Shown here one piece after another: positions 1 through 54,392 of a stretch of DNA of 64,000 bases. The translations under genes and the position numbers were made by a program. Under the pieces are notes generated by a model, which saw only the letters and a list, made by a program, of their open reading frames with translations, was not told the DNA's origin and made no database searches. This DNA comes from Chitinophagaceae bacterium. GTDB lineage: Bacteria; Bacteroidota; Bacteroidia; Chitinophagales; UBA10324. Within the stretch, counting starts at the first letter, position 1. Each line of letters starts with the position of its first letter. The DNA is taken from the NCBI GenBank assembly GCA_947474435.1, contig CANJII010000002.1, forward strand, positions 34,202 to 98,201, in the 5' to 3' direction.

Positions 1-435
1 TGATTTCTACATGTGTATTTCTGTTTGGTTTTCGGAAGGAAGCAGGTACAGAACAACCAAACTTCAATCTTATCTTTCATTGTGTCTCGCTCAACTTAAA
101 AAGATAAAAGTTGAACCAACCTGATTTTTCGAAGTTCGAGATGCAGCTTCTCAGGTAAAATCTGCAAGGAACTGATGGCACTAAATCGCTCTGCGATTAA
201 GCAGCCATTCTGTAAGAAGTGTTGCCAATTATGGCGTTGAAGGATAGATATTAAAGAGCTTGCCCCACAATGCTCTACATGCTTACATACAAAGAACGAT
301 GCTGTCAATTCCGGTCAGCCCCGGTTAATGGAAGCAAAAATAGGTGTAATTAGTTCCACTGCGATGCTAAAAAAAATATTTGCCGATTACATTTGCGGCA
401 ATTCCGAAAAAATCGGATACGAAAAAAATAGTTTG

Positions 436-1640: not shown

Positions 1641-2486
1641 TTATCTAAAACACTTTTTCAAAAATTCAACTGCCGAAGTATTTGCATCTGCTGATGAAAC
1701 TTTATCGTAATGCGGATTGCTTGGGTTGGCAAATGCATGGTCGGCATCATAATTTTTTAAGGTTAAAACTTTACCTGCACTCTTCATATCCTTTTCAAAC
1801 TGCGCAACCACTTCAGGCGAAATCCATTTATCTCGTGTTCCAAAAATTCCAAGCACATCACAATTCAATTGCTTCAATTTATTTCCATCAGTAATCGGCA
1901 TACCATAATACAGCACGCAACCAACAGCTTGTTTTCCAGCGAGAGAAGTTCCTTTCAATGATAAGCCGCCACCGAAGCACCATCCTATTGTTGCAATGCG
2001 CGCATTCTTTCCAACATAAGTTATTGCACCATTAATAATATTTTCTATTCTGATATCTTTCGATTGACTCATAAAACTTCCTGCTGAATCAGCATTCGAA
2101 GTAACTCTACCATCATAAATATCAAGCGCAATCACATTCACATTTCCGATTTGCTTTTGCAATTCATCAGTGCGCTGTTTTATGTAATCATTCAATCCCC
2201 ACCATTCATGAAAAACAAAAAGATAATTATCCGTGGGTGAAGCAGCCTTCACAAAGTATGCATTCGCGTTCTTCCCATCAGTTGTAACAAACGAAATCAT
2301 CTTTCCAATCTGTTCTGAATAATTAAAAGGCATCGGACTTTCATGTGCCAATATAAACGAACGGTCATTCGCAAAAGCAACCATTCCATTAACTGATTTC
2401 GGGTTCGAACAACATGTTAGCTGCTGAGCTCTTGCAAAGGATACAGTTAAAAAAAGCAGTTCGAGAAATAATAATTGTTTTTTCAT
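1641..2486 (-). CDS. Dienelactone hydrolase family protein, secreted
   Basis: 281-aa ORF with an N-terminal signal peptide. It has the GWCFGG nucleophile motif, a C-terminal DHAF histidine motif and the FHEWWGLN block typical of DLH-fold hydrolases. Confidence 0.75.
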   Translation of the reverse strand: MKKQLLFLELLFLTVSFARAQQLTCCSNPKSVNGMVAFANDRSFILAHESPMPFNYSEQIGKMISFVTTDGKNANAYFVKAASPTDNYLFVFHEWWGLNDYIKQRTDELQKQIGNVNVIALDIYDGRVTSNADSAGSFMSQSKDIRIENIINGAITYVGKNARIATIGWCFGGGLSLKGTSLAGKQAVGCVLYYGMPITDGNKLKQLNCDVLGIFGTRDKWISPEVVAQFEKDMKSAGKVLTLKNYDADHAFANPSNPHYDKVSSADANTSAVEFLKKCFR

Positions 2487-2631
2487 AGAGTGGAGTTTTA
2501 TAATGCAAAATTGAAATTAATTTCTTCAATTTTTAATTTGAAAATTTTATCAACTGATATATACAGAACCATTTGTGGCGTGAATAAATACCATATTTGT
2601 TCCATGCAACCAAAAGGAGAAATACATATTC

Positions 2632-3081
2632 TTGATGAAAATAAATAATCCAATTATGATCAGAAAATTTCTAAAAGCTATTTCTTTCATCGCCATCGGT
2701 GTCTTTCTTTTCGGTGCTTGTTCAAAGGAAAATAAAATCAGAAAAAACCTTTCAGGAACATGGAAAGTTGTTTCAACTACAGATTCAACTATCAATGCGG
2801 CAATGACAGCGGGAACAACGGTGCAATATCAATTCAGCGATTGCAAAAAGAAAGACGAACCCTGCAATGGAGTTTACACTTTATCCTATAACCTGTTTGG
2901 ATTTCCATTGTCAGTTTCAGCGCCTTATACATGGATAGTGAAAGAAGATGTTTTATCCATCACTCCTTCAGATACACTTTTAACTGCCGGAAGTTTTCAC
3001 ATTGAATTTACTGATAAGAAAAAATTAACTGCAACTGATGTGGCTAATGCTGCAAACATTACCACACTCGAAGAATTATAA
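2632..3081 (+). CDS. Hypothetical lipoprotein
   Basis: 149-aa ORF with a signal peptide ending in FGAC (lipobox-like Cys). No domain recognised. Confidence 0.55.
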   Translation: MMKINNPIMIRKFLKAISFIAIGVFLFGACSKENKIRKNLSGTWKVVSTTDSTINAAMTAGTTVQYQFSDCKKKDEPCNGVYTLSYNLFGFPLSVSAPYTWIVKEDVLSITPSDTLLTAGSFHIEFTDKKKLTATDVANAANITTLEEL

Positions 3082-3103
3082 AACTGATTTATAATTTTAG
3101 TAA

Positions 3104-3145
3104 AAGACCGATACAATTTGAAATTATATCGGTCCTTTTATTTTG
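3104..3145 (+). terminator. Rho-independent terminator after the 2632..3081 gene
   Basis: Stem GACCGATA (3106-3113) pairs with TATCGGTC (3127-3134) and is followed by a T-rich run. Confidence 0.6.
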
Positions 3146-3274
3146 AAAAAAACATTCACTTTATTATGAATTGAAATTATTCATGTAGTGATTTTAAACA
3201 AAAACAATACATGATATAAATCCTGTTTCTGATTTATTTCCCCTTTTATATTTAGCCAAACCCTTTGAAACAGC

Positions 3275-5095
3275 ATGAACAGAATTTTTTTATTTATCAA
3301 TTTGATTTTATTTCCCTTTATTCTCACAGCACAAATTCAATTGCCTGAGGATACTGTGATGTGTCCCGATACACTTACAGTTGTGGCAAATGTTTCTTCA
3401 TCTGCAACCTTAGGAAGTTTGTTAACCGGAGGTGATGATATTATTACAACTCCTATCAACATTGGTTTTCCATTTGTGTTTTATGGAAACACTTATACTC
3501 AATGCAGACTATGTACAAATAATTATCTCACCTTTGAAATGACTCAGGGTGCATGGTGGGATGCATCAACAACTTTACCGAACGATACTGCAGCACCACT
3601 GAATGCAATTTTATTTCCATGGGAAGACTTGAATAGTTTGGGTGCAGGCACATTGATGTACGCAGTGGTTGGAAATGCTCCGGACAGAAAATTTATTTTT
3701 CAGATTTGTAATTCGCCTTTCTATGGTTGTGCTGCCGAATATTTCAGCGGGCAGGTTGTGTTATGTGAAACAACCAACATCATTGAAACATATATTTTTC
3801 ACAAAGGATTATGCGCAGGAAGTAATGAAGGATCAGGCATTCATGGATTGCACAATGCAACCGGCACCATTGCCGATATTGTTGCGGGCAGAAATTATCC
3901 AACCAACTGGATTACCAATAATGAAGGAATGCGATTTACACCAAACGGACCGAATGATTATCTGATAACAACTATTCCCTTTACTCCATACAATCCATCT
4001 TTTGTTACTTGGACCTTAAATGGAACGAATGCCGGTACGGGCGACTCGATAACATTTTTAGCGAGTGATACCACAATTATTATTGCAGGCACTGCTTCTT
4101 GTTCCGGAAATTTAACTGATACGATGCTTGTGTTTGTTCCATCAGTAAATCTGCAGGTGTCAGCAACACAGTATTCAATTTGTTATGGTAATGAAATTGA
4201 TTTGTCGGCCACCGGTGCTGAAAATTATTTATGGGTTCCGGGAAATATTTCTTCACCTGTTTTTACTGATGCGCCTGCAGTAAGTACTACATATACAGTA
4301 TATGGAAGTAATACTTCCGCCTGTTTAATTGTTGATTCGGCAACCATTGAAGTGACTGTAAATCCGCTACCTGATTTGAATGTGAATGCACTTACTGATT
4401 CTATTTGTATTGGTGATCCGGTATTGTTCAGTGCAACAGGTGCTGATACTTATTTGTGGTATCCGGGTTTTCAAACTACACCACTGATATTTTTTTATCC
4501 GCTGACGAGTGTCACTCTTAATTGTACCGGTGTGGATACCACAACCGGATGTTCAATTCTAATTTCCTCACCCGTTACAGTATTTCAAAATCCTGAACTT
4601 GTTGTATCATCTGATACAATAATTTGTAAGGGCGATAGCGTGTTGTTGTTTGCACAAGGAGCAGTGTTTTATTCATGGTCATCAGTACAGTTATCAGGCA
4701 ATGTAGTTGGTGCATCCATTATGGTTTCTCCTGACAGTTCTGGTGTTTATTCTGTTAACGGAATGTCATTTGATGGTTGTCAGGTTTCTTCAACAATTGA
4801 GGTTCAGGTTACAATTTGTAATGCTGTTTATGCAAATGAAAAAAATACTTCGCTTCAATTATTTCCGAATCCGAGTAATGGAAATTTTTTAGTAAAAGGT
4901 GTTTCAAAAAATAATTCGTCAAAAATTTTCATTACCAATTTAGTTGGTCAAAAAATTATTGATTGGGAAATTTTATCAGAAAGAAATAATGATCTGTTTA
5001 TTCAATTGAACAGTGAAATTTCCAATGGAGTTTACTTACTTAATTCTGAAACAGAAGGCCGAAAAGAAATAATTAAGTTGATATTAATCCGGTAG
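3275..5095 (+). CDS. T9SS-sorted secreted protein with Ig-like repeats (type A C-terminal sorting domain)
   Basis: 606 aa with a signal peptide. It has about four repeats of the C.G..v.L.A.Ga..Y.W.P type. The C-terminus (LFPNPSNGNF...GVYLLN...) matches the Por secretion tail. Confidence 0.75.
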   Translation: MNRIFLFINLILFPFILTAQIQLPEDTVMCPDTLTVVANVSSSATLGSLLTGGDDIITTPINIGFPFVFYGNTYTQCRLCTNNYLTFEMTQGAWWDASTTLPNDTAAPLNAILFPWEDLNSLGAGTLMYAVVGNAPDRKFIFQICNSPFYGCAAEYFSGQVVLCETTNIIETYIFHKGLCAGSNEGSGIHGLHNATGTIADIVAGRNYPTNWITNNEGMRFTPNGPNDYLITTIPFTPYNPSFVTWTLNGTNAGTGDSITFLASDTTIIIAGTASCSGNLTDTMLVFVPSVNLQVSATQYSICYGNEIDLSATGAENYLWVPGNISSPVFTDAPAVSTTYTVYGSNTSACLIVDSATIEVTVNPLPDLNVNALTDSICIGDPVLFSATGADTYLWYPGFQTTPLIFFYPLTSVTLNCTGVDTTTGCSILISSPVTVFQNPELVVSSDTIICKGDSVLLFAQGAVFYSWSSVQLSGNVVGASIMVSPDSSGVYSVNGMSFDGCQVSSTIEVQVTICNAVYANEKNTSLQLFPNPSNGNFLVKGVSKNNSSKIFITNLVGQKIIDWEILSERNNDLFIQLNSEISNGVYLLNSETEGRKEIIKLILIR

Positions 5096-5585: not shown

Positions 5586-6526
5586 CTATTGATTTTTTTC
5601 TTGAAATAAAAAGTTCGTTTCAAATTAAATCCAATTACAAAATTCTGTTTCAGATAATTGTATTGCGCTTTTGACTGAATCAGGTTCTCAGTAATTTCTG
5701 TTGTTGAACTCAGTACAATTTGAAAAATATGACTGGCGCTTGAAATTTCATACGCAATGGAAAGCGGGTAAATCGTATCAACAGGTTTGTTGTTAAACCG
5801 GTATGAATATTCAAGCAGCACTGAAGAATAAATTCCGGTTTTAAAAGCTGCACTCACAGGCAAAATAAAAGTTTGATTATTTTGTAAGGGCTCTACTAGA
5901 TTGCGATAGAGAAAGGAAGGAGAAAGCTGAACTGAAAATTTGCTTCCGAATTTTCGGGCAATTATGATCTGACTGTAGTAACTGAGCCTGTGATTGAATT
6001 TGTTTTTGAATGGAGTAATGCTATCCTGAAAGAATGAATATTTCTGCGGCTCTAAAAAATCATCCGTTGAAAATCCGGTATTAAAATACAACGCAACCGA
6101 TACCGGCATTTTGTTATTCTCTTTCTGTGCGAAGAGCAAATGCTTTATTTCTCCATCAACAGTTTTACCGTTTTTTGTTCTGCCGATTCCTATTGAACAA
6201 TTTTTTCCAAACGGAAAAGCAAACCCGAACCGGATGTTGGCAGGAAGATCAAAACCTAAAAACTGTTTGTAAAACGATTTATTAATTCCAATGCCCCCAA
6301 ACCTGTGCTTGATACTGAACTCCATTGAATGCTTCGGAAGCATTATTACTGTTTGTTCATTGATGTTCCAGTTGTTGCGGAAAGTATTTTCAACTAGAGC
6401 ATTCGCTTCATTCTCTTGCGAATATGTTTTTTTAGTTGCCATTAAAAAGCAGGTGAATGAAACGAAAAAAATAATTCGTTGCATACTGATAAAAGATGTT
6501 TTTGCAGAAAACATTTTCGAAATCAT
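5582..6526 (-). CDS. Putative outer-membrane beta-barrel protein (DUF5777-like)
   Basis: 314 aa with a signal peptide and alternating beta-strand-like composition. The IKHRFGGI motif is one I associate with the DUF5777 barrel family. It overlaps both neighbouring genes by 4 nt. Confidence 0.5.
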   Translation of the reverse strand: MISKMFSAKTSFISMQRIIFFVSFTCFLMATKKTYSQENEANALVENTFRNNWNINEQTVIMLPKHSMEFSIKHRFGGIGINKSFYKQFLGFDLPANIRFGFAFPFGKNCSIGIGRTKNGKTVDGEIKHLLFAQKENNKMPVSVALYFNTGFSTDDFLEPQKYSFFQDSITPFKNKFNHRLSYYSQIIIARKFGSKFSVQLSPSFLYRNLVEPLQNNQTFILPVSAAFKTGIYSSVLLEYSYRFNNKPVDTIYPLSIAYEISSASHIFQIVLSSTTEITENLIQSKAQYNYLKQNFVIGFNLKRTFYFKKKINR

Positions 6527-6936: not shown

Positions 6937-8964
6937 TTACATTTTTACAAAATTTGATTTCAACTGATCTGATTTTTCATTCTCGCTTTTTCCCAATGAA
7001 GATTCATTTCCGTTCGCATAAATTTTACTTAACAAATCACGGGCTCCATTGAAATCAGGTTTTAATTTTAAAACAAATTCCAATGGAGCAATGGCTTCTG
7101 AAATTTTATTCTGATTAAATAAAATCAAACCCTTGTTGTAGTAACCAATGTAATTCTGTGGTTCCAGATGTATGAGTTTATTGGTATGAGCCAATGCTTC
7201 ATCATATCTTTTTTGCGCAATCAGCATCATACTGAAATGCGCTTCGGCAATGGCTGATTCAGGAATTAGTTTTTGATATTCATTAAAATAATTTTCAGCA
7301 GGAATAAAATTCTTGCTTCGCGATAAAAGAATGGCCGTGGCAAGCAAGGCATCTGCATTGTCAGCATTGTCCTTTATAGCATTCTGGTAGTGAGCGAGAG
7401 CGTTCTTATAATTTCGGTTTTTTTCTTCAATGTGTCCGAGCATTAATTCAGCCTCACTTTTAATGGCGTATTCTTTTGCAGTAAAAATCAATGGGTAATT
7501 GATAATAGCAGTTAATACAGGCACCGCTTCAATTTCGTTTTGAGTGGAAATTAAAAGTTTAGCCAATCGGTTTTTTGCTTCAATATCATCTGCTTCATTT
7601 GTTACTACCTGTTTAAGATACTGAATGGCGAGCGGATAATTTTTTTCATAAATGGAAATAGTTGCGAGGTATCTGCTCAATGAAGCGGGTGTAAACAATC
7701 CATATTTTAAAGCAAACTCAAAATGTTTTTTTGCTTCAGTTAATGTTTGATTATTGACAGATGTGTTAGCAGCGGCAAGATTTCCAATATCCGCTGATGC
7801 GCCTGATAATAAATTTTTTCCTTTTAAATAATGGTATTGATAAAAAGCATGATAACCTGAAAACAAAAGCATAAAGACTGAAAGTGAAATAAAAAATTTT
7901 CCGTTCAGCGAAAATTTACCTGCTTGTTTCAATACGATAGTGCCAAGCGGAACATATTCGTAAGAAAATAACCGCAATAGCCAGATGGTTAAAAAAGAAA
8001 AAATAAGTCCAAGCGAAAGTGCAAGTAAAAATGGAATTGTATTGTACAAGCCGCGATAGATAAAAAAGAAAATAAAAAACAAAACAACAGCAATCAGTTC
8101 TTCACGCAACGAAAAAGTATATTTTTTCTTTATAGATTTTATCTGACTCAATGATTTGAAAAATGATGGTTTGGTAAATCCATATTCCAGTGCGTTGGTT
8201 GGGCAACTCGCCACACAGTCCAGATCTTTCAAACAATTGTGATCAACTACTTTACTGAAATGATTAACTTCCTGATGAACCTGTATGTGCGAATTGCAAA
8301 CCGTGGTACAAATTCCGCATTGATTGCAATCACCGGTCAACACAATTTTCCCCCTGGAAAGACGATCCATTCCGGCAAACAAAACTCCATACGGACAACC
8401 ATACTGACAAAAACTTCTTGAGCCGAGAAAATAAACCGTTCCGAATCCAACTGTAATAAAAGTGATGGTAGTAATTAACGGGCTTGGTAAATTTCTCCAG
8501 AAGTTAGCAGTAATAAATGATGCCCATCCATCTTTATCGGTGGTGATTTTCAGTTGAACGAATGGCATTCCGTAATATAATTTTTCAACTATCGGAACTC
8601 CGAATAAATACAACACCGCTATTACAGGAATCAAAATAAAAAACCGCGACTTAATTTGTTTGGGTTTGATATTTATTTTTTCCAGCAGCCATGCCGATAA
8701 ATCCTGCAACGCAAGAATGTGACAACCCCATGAACAAAAAAATCGCCCGAATATTAAAGTGGCAATAACAGTGATTGCCATCAAAATAAATCCCGCAGTT
8801 ATTATTCCCTGATGAACCGTAAATAATACTTCATTGAATTCAAGAGGGGCAAGCGCTCTTCCGGCTAACTTCCAGTAAACAATGTGCACCACCATTAAAA
8901 CATATACTGAAATTAATGTTGCGACTCTCCACCTGGTATATTTATTTGAGAGTTCGTGCTTCAT
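6937..8964 (-). CDS. Membrane polyferredoxin (NapH/CcoG/MauN-like 4Fe-4S protein) fused to a C-terminal TPR domain
   Basis: 675 aa with multiple TM helices. It has CxxxC(P/H) motifs (FFCSWGCH, FCQYGCPYG) and ferredoxin motifs (CNQCGICTTVC and CVASCP). The C-terminal ~300 aa are TPR-like. Confidence 0.7.
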   Translation of the reverse strand: MKHELSNKYTRWRVATLISVYVLMVVHIVYWKLAGRALAPLEFNEVLFTVHQGIITAGFILMAITVIATLIFGRFFCSWGCHILALQDLSAWLLEKINIKPKQIKSRFFILIPVIAVLYLFGVPIVEKLYYGMPFVQLKITTDKDGWASFITANFWRNLPSPLITTITFITVGFGTVYFLGSRSFCQYGCPYGVLFAGMDRLSRGKIVLTGDCNQCGICTTVCNSHIQVHQEVNHFSKVVDHNCLKDLDCVASCPTNALEYGFTKPSFFKSLSQIKSIKKKYTFSLREELIAVVLFFIFFFIYRGLYNTIPFLLALSLGLIFSFLTIWLLRLFSYEYVPLGTIVLKQAGKFSLNGKFFISLSVFMLLFSGYHAFYQYHYLKGKNLLSGASADIGNLAAANTSVNNQTLTEAKKHFEFALKYGLFTPASLSRYLATISIYEKNYPLAIQYLKQVVTNEADDIEAKNRLAKLLISTQNEIEAVPVLTAIINYPLIFTAKEYAIKSEAELMLGHIEEKNRNYKNALAHYQNAIKDNADNADALLATAILLSRSKNFIPAENYFNEYQKLIPESAIAEAHFSMMLIAQKRYDEALAHTNKLIHLEPQNYIGYYNKGLILFNQNKISEAIAPLEFVLKLKPDFNGARDLLSKIYANGNESSLGKSENEKSDQLKSNFVKM

Positions 8965-34940: not shown

Positions 34941-35014
34941 GGCCCTGTAGCTCAACTGAATAGAGTATCTGACTACGGATCAGAAGGTTCAAGGTTTGAC
35001 TCCTTGCAGGGTCA
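34941..35014 (+). tRNA. tRNA-Arg (anticodon ACG)
   Basis: Cloverleaf folded by hand. The acceptor stem is GGCCCTG/CAGGGTC with one G-U pair. The D arm is GCTC..GAGT. The anticodon stem is TCTGA/TCAGA with loop CT-ACG-GA. The T arm is CAAGG-TTTGACT-CCTTG, followed by discriminator A. CCA is not encoded. Confidence 0.9.
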
Positions 35015-50265: not shown

Positions 50266-50613
50266 ATGATTGTAAATCTGGAAGGAATGAAGTTTCACTC
50301 TCCCATTGGATATTATGAAGAAGAACAAGTAGTAGGGAACGAAATTGTTATTGATCTGGAAGTAGAATTAAATCTGGCGGTGCAAACCAACGACCAACTT
50401 ACCCGCACCATTAATTATGAGACACTGTATGATATGTGTAAAAAAATTTCGCAGAAACCTTTCCGTTTAATTGAAACTTATTGTAGTGAAATTATCAACC
50501 TTATTATTCTGCAACTTCGAGTGAACCGCATAAAAATAAAAGTATCGAAATTAAATCCTGCTCTCGGCGGTGTTATTGATAAGGCGAGTGTGACGATGGA
50601 ACGGGTGTTTTAA
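50266..50613 (+). CDS. folB: Dihydroneopterin aldolase
   Basis: 115 aa. G..F...IGyyEEEq..Gn...iDle followed by INYE is the FolB pattern. Confidence 0.8.
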   Translation: MIVNLEGMKFHSPIGYYEEEQVVGNEIVIDLEVELNLAVQTNDQLTRTINYETLYDMCKKISQKPFRLIETYCSEIINLIILQLRVNRIKIKVSKLNPALGGVIDKASVTMERVF

Positions 50614-50620
50614 TAAATAT

Positions 50621-50777
50621 TTTTTTTGGGGAAAAGAATACAGCGCACGCTGGTTTGTTGTTGCTGGTTTGTCGGAACGCGGTTTTGTCTTTGCTGTAGC
50701 TGCCTCGCGGCAGGGGGTTTTGCGTTATTTCGTTTTTGTTAAGTTATTTCGCAGCACGGAAACATTCCGTGCCGAGC
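50621..50777 (+). repeat. Left copy of a GC-rich ~157-bp inverted repeat
   Basis: Its reverse-complement partner is at 52241-52398. The terminal ~22 nt (GAATACAGCGCACGCTGGTTTG) and inner 27 nt (GCAGCACGGAAACATTCCGTGCCGAGC) are identical between copies, while the middle is diverged. Confidence 0.8.
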
Positions 50778-50947
50778 TGATTTACCATCCGGAAATTATA
50801 CCCTCAGATACCGATTAACTGATTACACCCCACAACAATTTGTGATTGCCGTAGCAGCAGGTGCACCTGCCACACAGGATGTAGTGTTGGTTCATGTGTA
50901 AAGAGCGAACACATCAAATTAAATTTAGGGCAACAAAAAAAATAATT

Positions 50948-51508
50948 ATGAATGACAACGAACTTGAAAACTATATTGGAAAATATTCTACCGACAAACT
51001 TCTTGAAATCATTAGTTCTAAAGCAAAAAGTTATAGCGAAAGATTTTTAGACTTTAGTAAAAACGAATTGGTCAGGCGAAATGTAAAGTTTGAATACAAT
51101 AAGGAACATAATGCACTTGTTGAAAAACTTTCAGATGAAGAATTGAAAAAAATTGTTGAAGTAGAATTCCTTGATTATAATCTTGAATACATGGAGGCAA
51201 TAAGATCTGAATATTTGAAAAGAAATTTTTTAAATGTGTCTGGTTACAATGATGATAGCACAAAAGAAAATAAATCGAAATACCCTTCATTGAATATTCT
51301 AATAGGTATGTATTCATTTTTTGGATGGGTTAGTTTAATTGTAGCGGCATTTGGTGCATTTGGATTAATGAGCTCTTATGATGCGTCAAAAGTTTACATT
51401 AATGCATTACTATTAATAGTAGGATTATTTTCAGCATTGGTTTCTTTTGCCACAGCTGAAGGTTTTAAATTATTTATTGATATTGAAAAAAATACAAGAA
51501 ATAAATAA
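50948..51508 (+). CDS. Hypothetical membrane protein (cassette gene 1)
   Basis: The ORF is 50894..51508. I moved the start to ATG 50948 (MNDNELENY). It has two C-terminal TM helices and is very AT-rich. Confidence 0.55.
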   Translation: MNDNELENYIGKYSTDKLLEIISSKAKSYSERFLDFSKNELVRRNVKFEYNKEHNALVEKLSDEELKKIVEVEFLDYNLEYMEAIRSEYLKRNFLNVSGYNDDSTKENKSKYPSLNILIGMYSFFGWVSLIVAAFGAFGLMSSYDASKVYINALLLIVGLFSALVSFATAEGFKLFIDIEKNTRNK

Positions 51509-51523
51509 TAAAACGATGATAAA

Positions 51524-52219
51524 ATGAAAAACATGGGGTTAACATCATTTCTATTGTCATTATGTTTTGTATTGCCAAATATTAGTATGACATCACCTAA
51601 AGATTTTATGTCAAAGGATTTAAATGGTTGGGTAAAATCAACTACAATAAAAAGATATAGTATCTACATGCAATCTGGAGAAATAAAAAAAAATGAATTG
51701 ATAGGAAAAACTATTTCAAAATATTCTACAAATGGAAATATAACAGAAGAACTACATTATAAATCAGATTGGAATTTGGAAAATAAAATAATCTATTTCT
51801 ATAATGAAAATGGCGTTGGTATTTTAGAGAATTTGTATAGTTCAGATGGATATTTGAGCTATAAACAATCTTATAATTATGATGATAAAGGAAATAAGAT
51901 TGAGATTGATATTTATGATTCTAAAGAAAAATTCTGTTCAAAAACAATAAATAAATATGATGAATTAAGCAATCTGATTGAAATTAATTATTACATAACA
52001 AAACCAACGGAAGATGTTTTTGATATTAAAATGATTATGAAATATAATGAAAAAGGAAATTTGATTCAGGAAATTTCTTATGACGCAAAAGGTACCTTAT
52101 TAGAAACCTGGACTTGGAGTTATGAAACATATGATGAAAATAAAAATTGGACTAAAAAAATTGGATATGATAACGGTGAACCAATGAATATTTGCGAAAG
52201 AGAAATTGAATATTATTAA
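51524..52219 (+). CDS. Hypothetical lipoprotein-like protein with short YD/RHS-like repeats (cassette gene 2)
   Basis: 231 aa with a signal peptide. Motifs such as YNYDDKGNKIEIDIYD and KYNEKGNLIQEISYD recur. Confidence 0.55.
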   Translation: MKNMGLTSFLLSLCFVLPNISMTSPKDFMSKDLNGWVKSTTIKRYSIYMQSGEIKKNELIGKTISKYSTNGNITEELHYKSDWNLENKIIYFYNENGVGILENLYSSDGYLSYKQSYNYDDKGNKIEIDIYDSKEKFCSKTINKYDELSNLIEINYYITKPTEDVFDIKMIMKYNEKGNLIQEISYDAKGTLLETWTWSYETYDENKNWTKKIGYDNGEPMNICEREIEYY

Positions 52220-52240
52220 TCCTTGCTCGGAATATTTCCT

Positions 52241-52398
52241 GCTCGGCACGGAATGTTTCCGTGCTGCGGAATTACTTAACTTAAAAGATATAACGCAAAA
52301 CCAACTGTCGCAAGGCAGATGCGGCAAAGGCAAACCCGCGTTTTGACAAACCCGTGATGGCAAACCAGCGTGCGCTGTATTCTTTCCCCCCAAAAAAA
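52241..52398 (-). repeat. Right copy of the GC-rich ~157-bp inverted repeat
   Basis: Its reverse complement aligns end to end with 50621-50777. Confidence 0.8.
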
Positions 52399-52451
52399 TC
52401 CTTCGACAAGCTCAGGATGACAGCGATAGAATAATTCAGTTTATAATAAAA

Positions 52452-54392
52452 TCACCTTCCAATTTTTTGTTTCAGCATATCAATGTACTGCTCATTTACA
52501 TTGAAGCCGAGTTGCTGCGCTTTGAGTGCATCGTTCAGGGCATTTTCAAACTGATTGAGATTAAAATAAACATCGGCACGAAGGGCATATAAATTTCCGG
52601 CAGTTGGCGAATATTGAATTGCGCTGTTTGCATCGGCTAATGCTTCGTTGTATTTATTCAGCTTTAGGTAACTGCGCGCACGGTTTCCATAACAATCGAA
52701 ATAAGCAGGGTTAATTTCTATTGCCTTTGAGTAAGCCCGGATGGCACTGTCAATTTTTCCCTTCATATCGAGCAGATTGCCAAGATTGCCATAGGCATTT
52801 GCATTGTTGGGTTCGGTTTTTAAAACCATTTTAAAATCGTGAAAAGCCGAATCGTACTTGCCGCCAATGCTGTAGGCAATGCCGCGGTTCATGAATGCAC
52901 CCGGATATTCGGGATTGAATTTTATGGCATTGCTGCAATCGTCAATGGCTTCGCGGATTTTTCCCTGCACGCGAAAAATATCGGAGCGGTTAATTAATGC
53001 TTCGGGATAATTTTTTTGTAACCGAATGGCTTCGTTGAATTGAACAAGTGCTTCATCTAACCGGTTATTTTTCTGATAAAAACTGCCGAGGTTATTGTGC
53101 GCGGTCGGAACATAACTGTATTTCTCAATGGTATCGAGCCAAAGCGATTCGGTGTTTTTCCAAACAGCAATTCTATCCATTGCCTGACTGCATTGAACGG
53201 CGATGATTGCAATCATGAACACCGAAACCAATTGCTTGTAAATTATTTTGATGGATTTATTTTTCAGTATCCAATCAACAAAATAAGCCATGAGAAAAAA
53301 CAAACCGAGGTAGGCGAGATAGGTATAACGGTCGGCCATAATTGCTGCACCAACAGGAAGTACCTGAAGTATGAGCGCCACATTCACTAAAAAAAATCCA
53401 AGTCCGAATAATATGGTTCGGTTTTTTCGGAAATAGAAAACAGTAATGGCGGCAATAATTAATAGCAAGATCGGAGAGCACCAGATTAACCAATCGTATC
53501 CGGCGCCCTTTAACGGATAAGGATAAAAAGCTGAAAGCGGACTTGCATAAATTGCTTTGTAGAAATAGCTGAACAATGAATAAGCGGCGAACAACATTTT
53601 CTCGGGGAAAGTATAGTACGGAATATCGGCAATGGATTTACTGAGCGATTGCGCTTTCACTGCCAATAATCCGAACGCGATGGATAAAACGAAGAATGGA
53701 ATTTTTTCAATCAACATTTTCCAATTCCATTTTCTTTTTTGCAGGAAATCAATTCCCAGCAAAACAACTGGCAGTGTAACGGCCTGCCCTTTTGAAAGCA
53801 GCGATAAAATAAAAGCGAGCAGGCATAACGAATAACTTACTGCTGATTTACTTTTTGAATAAAACAGGTAAGCAATTAAACTCATCATGTAAAAACACAA
53901 GTACATTAAATCTTTCCGTTCCGATATCCATGCAACCGATTCGGTGTGCGCCGGGTGAATGGCAAACAGCGCTGCAACAATTGTTGCCATCCATGCTGAT
54001 TGCATGAATAAGAAAATGAAAAAGAAAACCAATGCGGTATTGAGCAAGTGAAAAAACAACGCGGTGCGGTGATATCCTTTTGCATCTTCGCCATACAACT
54101 TCCAATCAACAGCAAGAGACAACATGGGCAGTGGGTGATAGTTGCCCATAACCTGTGTGGTGGTGAAAAACTGAGTGAAAGTAGTTGCGCTTAAATTTTT
54201 TGTTAATTCGTTATCGAGCACATAACCTCTGTCGTCCCAGTTGGTCCATTCGTTTTTTAGTGATGGATAATAAACAATGAGTGTTAGCAGAAATACGCAA
54301 GCCAGCAAGTACCATTTTAAATATTTAACAGCAGGTTTTTCAACTTTAGCTTTTATGGATGGTTGCCTGGTTTCCGATTTATTTTTTTTCAT
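52452..54392 (-). CDS. TMTC-like membrane protein (DUF1736 region plus C-terminal TPR repeats)
   Basis: 646 aa with about 10 TM helices. The HPAHTESVAWISERKDL motif is followed by about 7 TPR units. Confidence 0.75.
   Translation of the reverse strand: MKKNKSETRQPSIKAKVEKPAVKYLKWYLLACVFLLTLIVYYPSLKNEWTNWDDRGYVLDNELTKNLSATTFTQFFTTTQVMGNYHPLPMLSLAVDWKLYGEDAKGYHRTALFFHLLNTALVFFFIFLFMQSAWMATIVAALFAIHPAHTESVAWISERKDLMYLCFYMMSLIAYLFYSKSKSAVSYSLCLLAFILSLLSKGQAVTLPVVLLGIDFLQKRKWNWKMLIEKIPFFVLSIAFGLLAVKAQSLSKSIADIPYYTFPEKMLFAAYSLFSYFYKAIYASPLSAFYPYPLKGAGYDWLIWCSPILLLIIAAITVFYFRKNRTILFGLGFFLVNVALILQVLPVGAAIMADRYTYLAYLGLFFLMAYFVDWILKNKSIKIIYKQLVSVFMIAIIAVQCSQAMDRIAVWKNTESLWLDTIEKYSYVPTAHNNLGSFYQKNNRLDEALVQFNEAIRLQKNYPEALINRSDIFRVQGKIREAIDDCSNAIKFNPEYPGAFMNRGIAYSIGGKYDSAFHDFKMVLKTEPNNANAYGNLGNLLDMKGKIDSAIRAYSKAIEINPAYFDCYGNRARSYLKLNKYNEALADANSAIQYSPTAGNLYALRADVYFNLNQFENALNDALKAQQLGFNVNEQYIDMLKQKIGR

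Follow-up and report, generated by a model that had tools for sequence, protein, structure and literature searches.

Between folB and a gene for a membrane protein with tetratricopeptide repeats (TPR), a Chitinophagaceae bacterium (Chitinophagales; UBA10324) carries a block of ~1.8 kb that is a lineage-specific insertion, because six relatives have neither the arms that bracket the block nor its cargo at this site. The block was studied within a window of 64,000 nt, that is, the whole stretch of DNA that was analysed (GCA_947474435.1, contig CANJII010000002.1, positions 34,202 to 98,201, forward strand); coordinates refer to this window unless another locus is named. The arms are inverted copies of a ~160-nt repeat that recurs as single copies in other Chitinophagaceae genomes, the left arm adjoins the 3' remnant of a truncated gene and, judged by their sequences, the two arms belong to different sub-lineages of the repeat. 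We tentatively read the interval as a small composite-type mobile unit, lacking a transposase of its own, that would be moved in trans via its outward tips.

An insertion at a conserved gene junction

In each of the six relatives examined (TPR protein identity 87, 84, 84, 79, 75 and 75%), folB and the TPR gene are convergent and separated by gaps of 27, 25, 24, -20, 7 and 3 nt. Neither arm nor cargo was found at this site in the six relatives, and intermediates, with one arm or with arms but no cargo, were not found there either. A first-pass annotation of the window had proposed that such empty sites be sought, and they exist in the expected form, folB abutting the TPR gene without a repeat. 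One of these loci (L034) keeps the UbiA-Maf-TPR-folB order of the window. Homology to the empty sites ends at ~50613-50622 on the left and resumes at ~52443-52448 on the right.

The inverted repeat lies where the same annotation had placed it (Table 1). A repeat search delimited two arms of 159 nt each, 84% complementary and with 1463 nt between them, and blastn aligned them over 159 positions with 134/159 identities, 25 mismatches and 0 gaps. The small indels described earlier in the centre of the repeat are therefore absent from this gapless alignment, while the identity described at its ends (outer ~22 nt, inner 27 nt) stands with slightly longer measured blocks, 25 nt on the outer side and 28 nt on the inner side. 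In the window, the inner 27-mer has 2 matches with 0 mismatches and the outer 30-mer 2 matches at ≤1 mismatch, with 0 expected by chance in both cases. Three compositional classes are packed within 1.8 kb: the arms at 48% GC, the gene remnant at 45% and the two cargo genes at 27.8% and 24.4%. The previously described contrast between repeat and enclosed genes (48% vs 24-28%, for a window mean of 35.8%) is thus real.

Anatomy of one repeat copy

Six copies of the repeat were compared (n=6): the two window arms (wL and wR), a copy in the Chitinophagaceae metagenome-assembled genome (MAG) nzgw146 (JAHEZG01; L001) and copies on three different contigs of another Chitinophagaceae MAG, TrH-25oct19-14 (CAMDOA01; L002 on CAMDOA010000068.1, L003, and L004 on CAMDOA010000092.1). 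From the outer to the inner side, a copy consists of a tip, an outer hairpin, sub-repeats, a central hairpin, an AT-rich spacer and an inner end. The tip is built of a run of 7-9 T, then GGGG, then the A-rich AAAAGAAT, with which the T-run is able to pair in the consensus fold; GGGG is GGGGG, TGGG or GGTGG in three copies and AAAAGAAT is AAAGAAT in wR. The outer end of every full copy is accordingly a T-run followed by GGGGAAAAGAAT, with the minor variants GGGGGAAAGAAT, TGGGAAAAGAAT and GGTGGAAAAGAAT. A promoter in the T-run was considered and rejected, as its spacing to the G varies and no upstream box is conserved.

The internal modules are more variable. At the position of the outer hairpin, the other MAGs have CAGATGGGGCTG or CAGATAGGGCTG, and L002 has another hairpin; L002 is a short variant that also lacks the sub-repeats, which elsewhere take the form GC(T/G)GGTTTGYC. 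The central hairpin has one mismatch in the right arm (GACAG), and L002 has a different 9-bp stem (AGCTCCGAT/ATCGGAGTT) at this position; both the outer and the central sequences are replaced in L002, yet hairpins still form at both positions. The inner end is made up of a pair of 8-nt half-sites, inverted with respect to each other, and an asymmetric 3-nt centre between them, and is followed by AGG in the copies; being invariant, the 27-nt GCAGCACGGAAACATTCCGTGCCGAGC serves as a probe for locating further copies.

Terminal inverted repeats within one copy are absent from all six, the tip TTTTGGGGAAAAGAATACAG being dissimilar to the reverse complement of the inner end, CCTGCTCGGCACGGAATG. Neither the two-armed unit nor any of the solo copies is flanked by a direct target-site duplication, the T-run and the A-run belonging to the repeat itself. 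Reading frames across the repeat are stopped in most copies, and an alignment of its six-frame translations, searched against 5.8 billion proteins to pick up spurious reading frames in other copies, found no match. Folded with single-stranded DNA parameters, the repeat is better than its shuffles (z -1.8 to -3.6).

A dispersed repeat family with mosaic arms

Further copies were sought with a 22-mer from the inner end, scanned against one genome per species, and with a profile (nhmmer) built from the six copies. The 22-mer scan returned four further single copies of the ~155-160-nt element, in unrelated contexts of the two other MAGs. The possibility, left open in the first-pass annotation, that the repeat is unique to the folB locus can be set aside because it recurs elsewhere, and the solo copies that were to be sought do exist; a second two-armed unit with cargo was not found among the copies. 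Sequence from the window genome covered the window and 18.6 kb more, 82.6 kb in all rather than a complete genome, and contains 2 copies, both at the folB/TPR locus; the MAGs have 1-3 copies each with the probe used. Of the six copies, five are found downstream of a gene whose orientation they share, and the sixth (L001) faces a gene start.

The profile found no extra copy in the window, the additional 18.6 kb, ~100 kb of relatives or the neighbourhoods of cargo homologues, and scans for isolated tips or inner hairpins returned the known copies only. In the JGI metagenomes, the inner 23-mer gave 0 matches and a relaxed three-block, hairpin-free pattern gave 14, none of which is recognised by the profile (nhmmer E≤1) and which we read as chance. 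Viral contigs gave 0 matches to the repeat, and plasmid and phage collections gave none to the left arm with the remnant, nor to the 343-aa protein described below. Among the loci compared, no shared housekeeping genes were found from which the divergence between the MAGs and the window could be estimated.

The single copies adjoin different DNA. In L001, truA and the inner end of the repeat are separated by an AT-rich island (2224-4045) with three unannotated open reading frames (ORFs; 123, 238 and 182 aa); the 182-aa ORF matches PHROG HNH endonucleases (E 1e-7), and a further hairpin and T8 come after the copy. The L003 contig (1-48) stops 45 nt past the inner end of its copy. In L004, a 21-nt inverted fragment of an L002-type 5' tip (TAGCTATTGGGATTCTTCCCC, 6359-6379) lies 0 nt from the inner end of the full copy, and may represent either a collapsed two-armed unit or a nested insertion. 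Insertion of the full L004 copy into an L002-type copy could not be demonstrated, the upstream flank match being just 8 nt.

The two window arms are no more alike over their whole length (84%) than each is to copies in other genomes (83-85%), and this average hides a mosaic. The outer 30 nt are shared at 29/30 between the window arms vs 77-83% with other genomes; the middle 58 nt show the reverse, 71% between the arms vs 78-86% with other genomes; the inner 27 nt are 100% identical in both comparisons. The middle of the right arm resembles L001, and that of the left arm L003 and L004. Because the middles resemble different foreign copies, the alignments show that the arms are not recent duplicates; they come from different sub-lineages, yet have tips that match each other and are specific to this genome. 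These tips and the invariant inner site look as if they were recognised by a protein.

A truncated gene and AT-rich cargo

Five nucleotides past the inner end of the left arm begins the 3' remnant of a gene. Its codons (50782-50898) are 67% identical to residues 305-343, the C-terminus, of a 343-aa protein of L004 (tblastn E 1.2e-9) and end with an in-frame stop at 50899-50901. The L004 protein has a CarboxypepD_reg domain (Pfam PF13620) and its gene lies ~460 nt from the L004 repeat copy. The first-pass annotation had taken this part of the interval for a ~170-nt leader containing a 14-bp palindrome: the palindrome is there (GCAGGTGCACCTGC, 50857-50870), inside the remnant and not in the L004 gene, while the leader is in fact the remains of a coding sequence. 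A more distant homologue of the 343-aa protein (24% identity over 269 residues, E 6e-12) lies 1.75 kb from the repeat copy of L002. The layout is common to L004, L002 and the window (relative to its right arm): a 343-like gene comes first, one or two unrelated genes of the same orientation follow, and the repeat comes last, in the opposite direction, its hairpin end towards the 343-like and variable genes. With tblastn, no match to the 343-like family was obtained in L001, L003, L011-L015 or the remainder of the window (E≤10), nor in L034-L039 (E≤1e-3).

The cargo proper consists of two genes, and the ORFs of 186 and 231 aa exist as earlier described. The family of the 186-aa protein is small and uncharacterised, with 27 cluster representatives at E<1e-10 (≤44% identity), and the protein matches no Pfam, NCBIfam, PHROG or PADLOC family. 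The YD-like repeats of the 231-aa protein correspond to a weak TIGR01643 match; its best homologues are 33-36% identical, many of them with PF05593, and sit in unrelated variable regions, in whose neighbourhoods neither the repeat, nor the 186-aa partner, nor a 343-like gene was found. Apart from this weak match, PADLOC, PHROGs and NCBIfam returned no defence, phage or named family for the cargo or the 343-aa protein; the sole PHROG match was that of the L001 HNH endonuclease. Past the stop of the 231-aa gene and just before the right arm, CCTTGCTCGGAATATTTCC has the appearance of a degenerate, partial duplicate of that arm's inner end and may be a footprint of recombination.

Some further observations concern the cargo and the 343-like genes. 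In sample ERZ28593229 the assembly breaks inside the cargo, scaffold_268 ending at window 51306 and scaffold_987 starting at ~51522; this break (51307-51521) lies away from the arms and is probably due not to a rearrangement but to poor coverage of DNA with 25% GC. In L004, two tandem ~55-nt units (aatttgtacaagcaaggtt.ctgtaa.c.gaa.cctgcg.ttgc) at 7745-7850 overlap the N-terminal end of the 343-aa ORF call, which uses a TTG start at 7849; they are upstream of the first in-frame ATG (~7745). In L002, ~370 nt of extremely AT-rich non-coding DNA (780-1150) precede the 343-like homologue, and a frameshift or a pseudogene is suggested there because the tblastn alignment passes the ORF stop (1829 vs 1928).

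Table 1. Features of the interval between folB and the TPR gene, and locations of the solo repeat copies.
Feature	Position	Strand	Description and basis
folB (dihydroneopterin aldolase)	50266..50613	+	Pfam PF02152, E 5.5e-25; stop 5 nt before left arm
Left arm	50619..50777	+	One ~160-nt repeat copy, tip to inner hairpin; repeat search, alignments, nhmmer E 5e-54
Left-arm tip	50619..50639	+	ATTTTTTTT-GGGG-AAAAGAAT; alignment and consensus fold
Outer hairpin	50641..50652	+	CAGCG-CA-CGCTG, common to both window arms; segment comparison, alignment
Three 14-16-nt sub-repeats	50649..50689	+	GC(T/G)GGTTT(T)GTY...; read from sequence
Central hairpin	50700..50728	+	CTGCC-TCGC-GGCAG, then conserved GGTTTTGCGTT; terminator-like (terminator scan, alignment, folds)
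Inner end	50751..50777	+	27-nt GCAGCACGGAAACATTCCGTGCCGAGC; 8-bp stem, 3-nt loop; identical in 6/6 copies
3' remnant of CarboxypepD_reg-domain gene	50782..50901	+	39 codons and stop, no start codon; tblastn, DNA alignment, blastn E 4e-7
Cargo gene 1, 186-aa protein	50948..51508	+	Two hydrophobic segments, both C-terminal; GC 27.8%
Cargo gene 2, 231-aa secreted or lipoprotein-like protein	51524..52219	+	Short YD-type repeats; GC 24.4%
Degenerate partial duplicate of right arm's inner end	52221..52239	+	CCTTGCTCGGAATATTTCC vs CCTGCTCGG[CACGG]AATGTTTCC; read from sequence
Right arm	52241..52399	-	Second repeat copy, inverted, tip towards TPR gene; repeat search, alignments, nhmmer
Spacer, right tip to TPR stop	52399..52451	.	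~50 nt; includes 23-nt TCCTTCGACAAGCTCAGGATGAC
646-aa membrane and TPR protein (TMTC-like)	52452..54392	-	TPR Pfam; orthologues 75-87% identity
Solo copy, L001	4105-4285		22-mer scan, nhmmer
Solo copy, L002	3681-3836		22-mer scan, nhmmer
Solo copy, L003	43-224		22-mer scan, nhmmer
Solo copy, L004	6182-6363		22-mer scan, nhmmer

Flanking genes and other features of the window

Pfam confirms the earlier identification of folB. For the 646-aa neighbour, which had been called TMTC-like, the TPR part is borne out by Pfam and no other Pfam family matches; the names that sources give to its homologues are TPR protein, O-GlcNAc transferase or O-mannosyl-transferase. The TPR gene seems to be disrupted in one variant of the population: in sample ERZ28593245 (L006 6929-8869, equivalent to window 52452-54392) the gene is called as two ORFs (172 + 444 aa), with a single mismatch to the window over 8 kb. 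Immediately beyond the right tip lies the 23-nt TCCTTCGACAAGCTCAGGATGAC (52399-52421), to which nothing corresponds in the relatives' intergenic spacers of 3-27 nt and which has no second copy (≤5 mismatches) in the window, L001-L004 or L011-L015; it may resemble a short repeat common in Bacteroidota intergenic regions. Far from the unit, the window holds a tmRNA gene (Rfam RF00023, 66 bits) at 1-322 (-), cut by the window start, and one tRNA gene at 34941-35014 (+).

Discussion

We consider it quite possible, if short of probable, that the interval is a small composite-type mobile unit without a transposase, moved in trans via its outward tips and analogous to TIME-COMP1. From what is observed, namely a dispersed repeat family, an insertion, the remnant of a truncated gene and mosaic arms, we infer an order of events that ends with movement as a single unit. 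One copy of the repeat would already have been resident downstream of a locus made of a 343-like gene followed by variable genes, as in L004 and L002. A second copy would have landed in, or been fused to, the 343-like gene, its tip pointing away, and the segment between the two outward tips would then have been transferred, as one piece and in a single step, to the short AT-rich spacer that separates folB from the TPR gene. Such a unit would have its T-run/GGGGAAAAGAAT tips turned outward, its invariant 27-nt hairpin ends turned inward and the passenger DNA between them, and the mobilising enzyme, encoded elsewhere and acting in trans, would recognise the tips. As a by-product, each arm would offer a hairpin and a U-tract to transcription coming from its flanking gene.

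Of the three alternatives put forward in the first-pass annotation, this one, a non-autonomous cassette mobilised in trans, is the best supported, by the six empty sites, the dispersed arm family and the truncated gene at the arm. Several observations nevertheless weigh against it. No target duplication flanks the unit, the T8 and A7 at its flanks being part of the inverted repeat itself and not a direct repeat, which argues against a classical DDE cut-and-paste reaction with staggered cuts. A single copy lacks terminal inverted repeats, so that the movement of solo copies is hard to account for. No transposase or recombinase Pfam family occurs in the called genes from ~15 kb upstream to 20 kb downstream (Pfam-less genes being left aside), which agrees with the earlier statement that there is none inside or adjacent, and no candidate mobilising partner was found. 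A second two-armed cargo unit was not found either, the nearest being the L004 full copy with its 21-nt inverted tip. The cargo is without close copies elsewhere (best 33-44% identity), and therefore there is no sign that the unit moved more than once. The repeat family appears rare and low-copy as far as seen, because the profile search and the metagenome, viral, plasmid and phage searches gave no further member; its known members number just 7. Finally, in the empty sites nothing corresponds to a stretch of ~40-50 nt that follows the right tip on its right either; therefore either the boundaries of the insertion are not exactly the tips, or the spacer has diverged.

The closest known precedents are the composite TIMEs. 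TIMEs have Tn3-type terminal inverted repeats of 38 bp (38-40 bp as a criterion for the class) and AT-rich direct repeats of 5 bp (5-6 bp as a criterion); TIME-COMP1 spans 2469 bp, with two oppositely oriented non-autonomous 262-bp elements, two passenger ORFs and a GC content below that of its surroundings, and its transposition was shown, while TIME-COMP2 was observed forming when a second copy landed near a resident one (PMC4133298). As in TIME-COMP, small non-coding repeats bracket a few passenger ORFs in the window, with no transposase inside, and the whole is absent from related sites; TIME-COMP1 in particular has nearly the same size and layout as the window unit, a passenger of deviating GC and arms that are not identical, and the history inferred above follows the way in which TIME-COMP2 formed. 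Unlike TIME-COMP, the window copies are without terminal inverted repeats and the unit without direct repeats, no Tn3-family partner is known here, and the host is a member of the Chitinophagaceae and not a Pseudomonas. The window tip does begin GGGG, but there is no matching inverted repeat at the other end and no 5-bp direct repeat. Tn3/TIME ends, and likewise Tn7-like ends, were ruled out for lack of direct repeats.

Miniature inverted-repeat transposable elements of the classical kind (MITEs) measure ~30-300 bp and are non-coding, carry no transposase gene, and have terminal inverted repeats and a target duplication (PMC4133298). The repeat is within this size range (~155-160 nt) and non-coding, its frames being stopped and without protein match, and has neither terminal inverted repeats nor a target duplication. 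Lacking both, the element is not classifiable as a MITE or a TIME. MITE-flanked passengers have been outlined in Acinetobacter, where 439-bp MITEs surround integron fragments (PMC3934969) and where MITEAba12 provides an example of a MITE-flanked passenger unit (PMC6382973). As far as these sources describe them, they share with the window unit the non-autonomous repeats at both ends of a passenger and the absence of that passenger from related sequences. The Acinetobacter MITEs would differ by the terminal inverted repeats and target duplications that the general definition gives them (PMC4133298), of which the window unit has neither.

Besides such mobile units, several families of intergenic repeats invite comparison. 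BOX, ERIC, RUP, SPRITE and REP/BIME are modular, hairpin-containing intergenic elements, often found at gene 3' ends and some of them terminator-like, and are typically present in high copy number within a genome; to our knowledge, none brackets passenger genes. The repeat resembles them in being of the ~100-160-nt class, modular, hairpin-containing and intergenic, and differs from them in its copy number, as the probe used detects 1-3 copies per MAG and 82.6 kb of the window genome contain 2. These family names are those listed in PMC10969869, and REP/BIME are outlined as 20-40-nt palindromes with a conserved GTAG or CGTC head, usually in >100 copies (PMC2817692, PMC3733652). Compared with that description, GTAG precedes the central hairpin in wL and L002 only, the other four copies having GCAT, and the copy number is low.

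In non-autonomous elements derived from IS200/IS605 (PATEs), a single Y1 transposase recognises subterminal hairpins that resemble each other at the two ends, and the left end is preceded on its 5' side by a fixed target of 4-5 nt. The repeat is like them in that it lacks terminal inverted repeats and a target duplication, has hairpins close to either end and gives favourable single-stranded folds (z -1.8 to -3.6). Unlike in PATEs, its end hairpins are unrelated to each other (an AT-only tip vs a GC-rich inner end) and the sequences 5' of the T-run differ between copies; an inverted unit with two tips is not the expected substrate of a strand-specific mechanism, and no TnpA was found among the neighbouring called genes. 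Integron attC sites are imperfect palindromes from end to end, with R''/R' cores, in cassettes arranged in direct orientation and with an integrase nearby; an integron cassette was rejected, as the ends of a copy are not complementary, the arms are inverted and not direct, and the neighbouring genes contain no integrase Pfam family. Diversity-generating retroelements have a repeat in the 3' end of a coding sequence, mismatches confined to adenines and a reverse transcriptase nearby; a TR/VR pair of this kind was rejected too, since both arms are intergenic, their mismatches include T>C, G>A and T>G, and there is no reverse transcriptase in the neighbouring genes.

The mismatch with all these classes leaves room for a bolder proposal, which we regard as improbable but worth stating: the ~160-nt repeat might be a previously undescribed kind of mobile element with asymmetric hairpin ends, an AT tip hairpin and an invariant GC hairpin, without terminal inverted repeats or target duplication. 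It would be served by an enzyme such as a single-strand-specific HUH-type protein or a structure-specific recombinase, and pairs with tips outward would capture and transplant chromosomal genes.

A different history, unlikely although with several points in its favour, is that the structure was assembled stepwise in place, by two solo insertions downstream of folB and of the TPR gene and a later capture of the passenger between them, through illegitimate or site-specific recombination using the inner hairpin ends as a landing pad. Solo copies exist, five of six downstream of a gene and co-oriented with it; the arms are no more similar to each other (84%) than to foreign copies (83-85%); inner ends adjoin different DNA, be it AT-rich ORFans including an HNH endonuclease (L001), an inverted tip (L004) or a remnant (window); and a partial duplicate of the inner end is present at 52221-52239. 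Stepwise assembly, however, asks for three events within a spacer measuring 3-27 nt in the relatives, none of the six relatives retains an intermediate, and independent arrival of the copies from different sub-lineages does not account for the genome-specific match of their tips (29/30).

It is distinctly unlikely, in our opinion, that the main role of the repeat is that of a structured RNA, or of a mobile 3' element resembling a terminator, with every copy serving its upstream gene and the inversion merely reflecting the convergence of the two genes. This corresponds to the earlier suggestion of a 3'-untranslated region or non-coding RNA element, which the data bear out weakly: most copies (5/6) are downstream of a gene and oriented as it is, and each has a hairpin and a U-tract. 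The central hairpin and the conserved GGUUUUGCGUU that follows it are flagged as terminator-like, the outer and central hairpins of L002 are replaced by other hairpin-forming sequences at the same positions, and the L001 copy is trailed by an additional hairpin and T8. Yet the same flanking genes in six relatives abut or overlap without any element, Rfam gave nothing relevant at the gathering score in the window and L001-L004 (at E≤10, 50400-52600 gave just chance-level matches, E 2.8-9.8), and the folding energy of whole arms is no better than that of dinucleotide shuffles (z -0.6 to 0). Covariation, which the first-pass annotation had proposed to examine in an alignment of the copies, is not significant, the RNAalifold covariation term being unfavourable, with a double change in 1/44 pairs. 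No conserved promoter is found upstream, beyond the T-run, as read from the four solo loci, and a terminator would leave unexplained both the truncated gene fused to the arm and the insertion. A role in RNA or termination may rather be a side effect.

Lastly, no evidence was found for the invertible or excisable segment of the first-pass annotation, and we judge it very unlikely that a site-specific recombinase flips (or excises) the 1.46-kb cargo at the inner 27-mers, which are identical, inverted, nearly palindromic and invariant across genomes, as if recognised by a protein, since all 24 + 24 assembled contigs compared (from 41-45 sample blocks; assemblies of this kind may hide minority variants) show one order and orientation and those spanning the unit are base-for-base identical over 50560-52500, the called genes around the unit include no invertase, solo copies elsewhere have no partner site, and a flip between convergent 3' ends with both arms pointing inward would presumably be functionally symmetric.

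Passenger units made of non-autonomous repeats are already known, hitherto documented mainly as Tn3-derived TIMEs and as Acinetobacter MITEs around resistance genes; what is new here is a rare Chitinophagaceae repeat family that breaks the usual rules for element ends. The immediate impact is modest, the family being rare and low-copy and the cargo without known function. The insertion with its gene remnant nonetheless explains both the AT-rich ORFan island and the apparent leader with a palindrome. If the composite mobile unit is the right reading, a Bacteroidota example joins a short list. The arm family stands outside the usual MITE rules and, because it has neither terminal inverted repeats nor target duplications, could point to an unrecognised mobilising enzyme; were the repeat indeed an element of an undescribed kind, the Chitinophagaceae would possess a route for shuttling genes without an insertion sequence.

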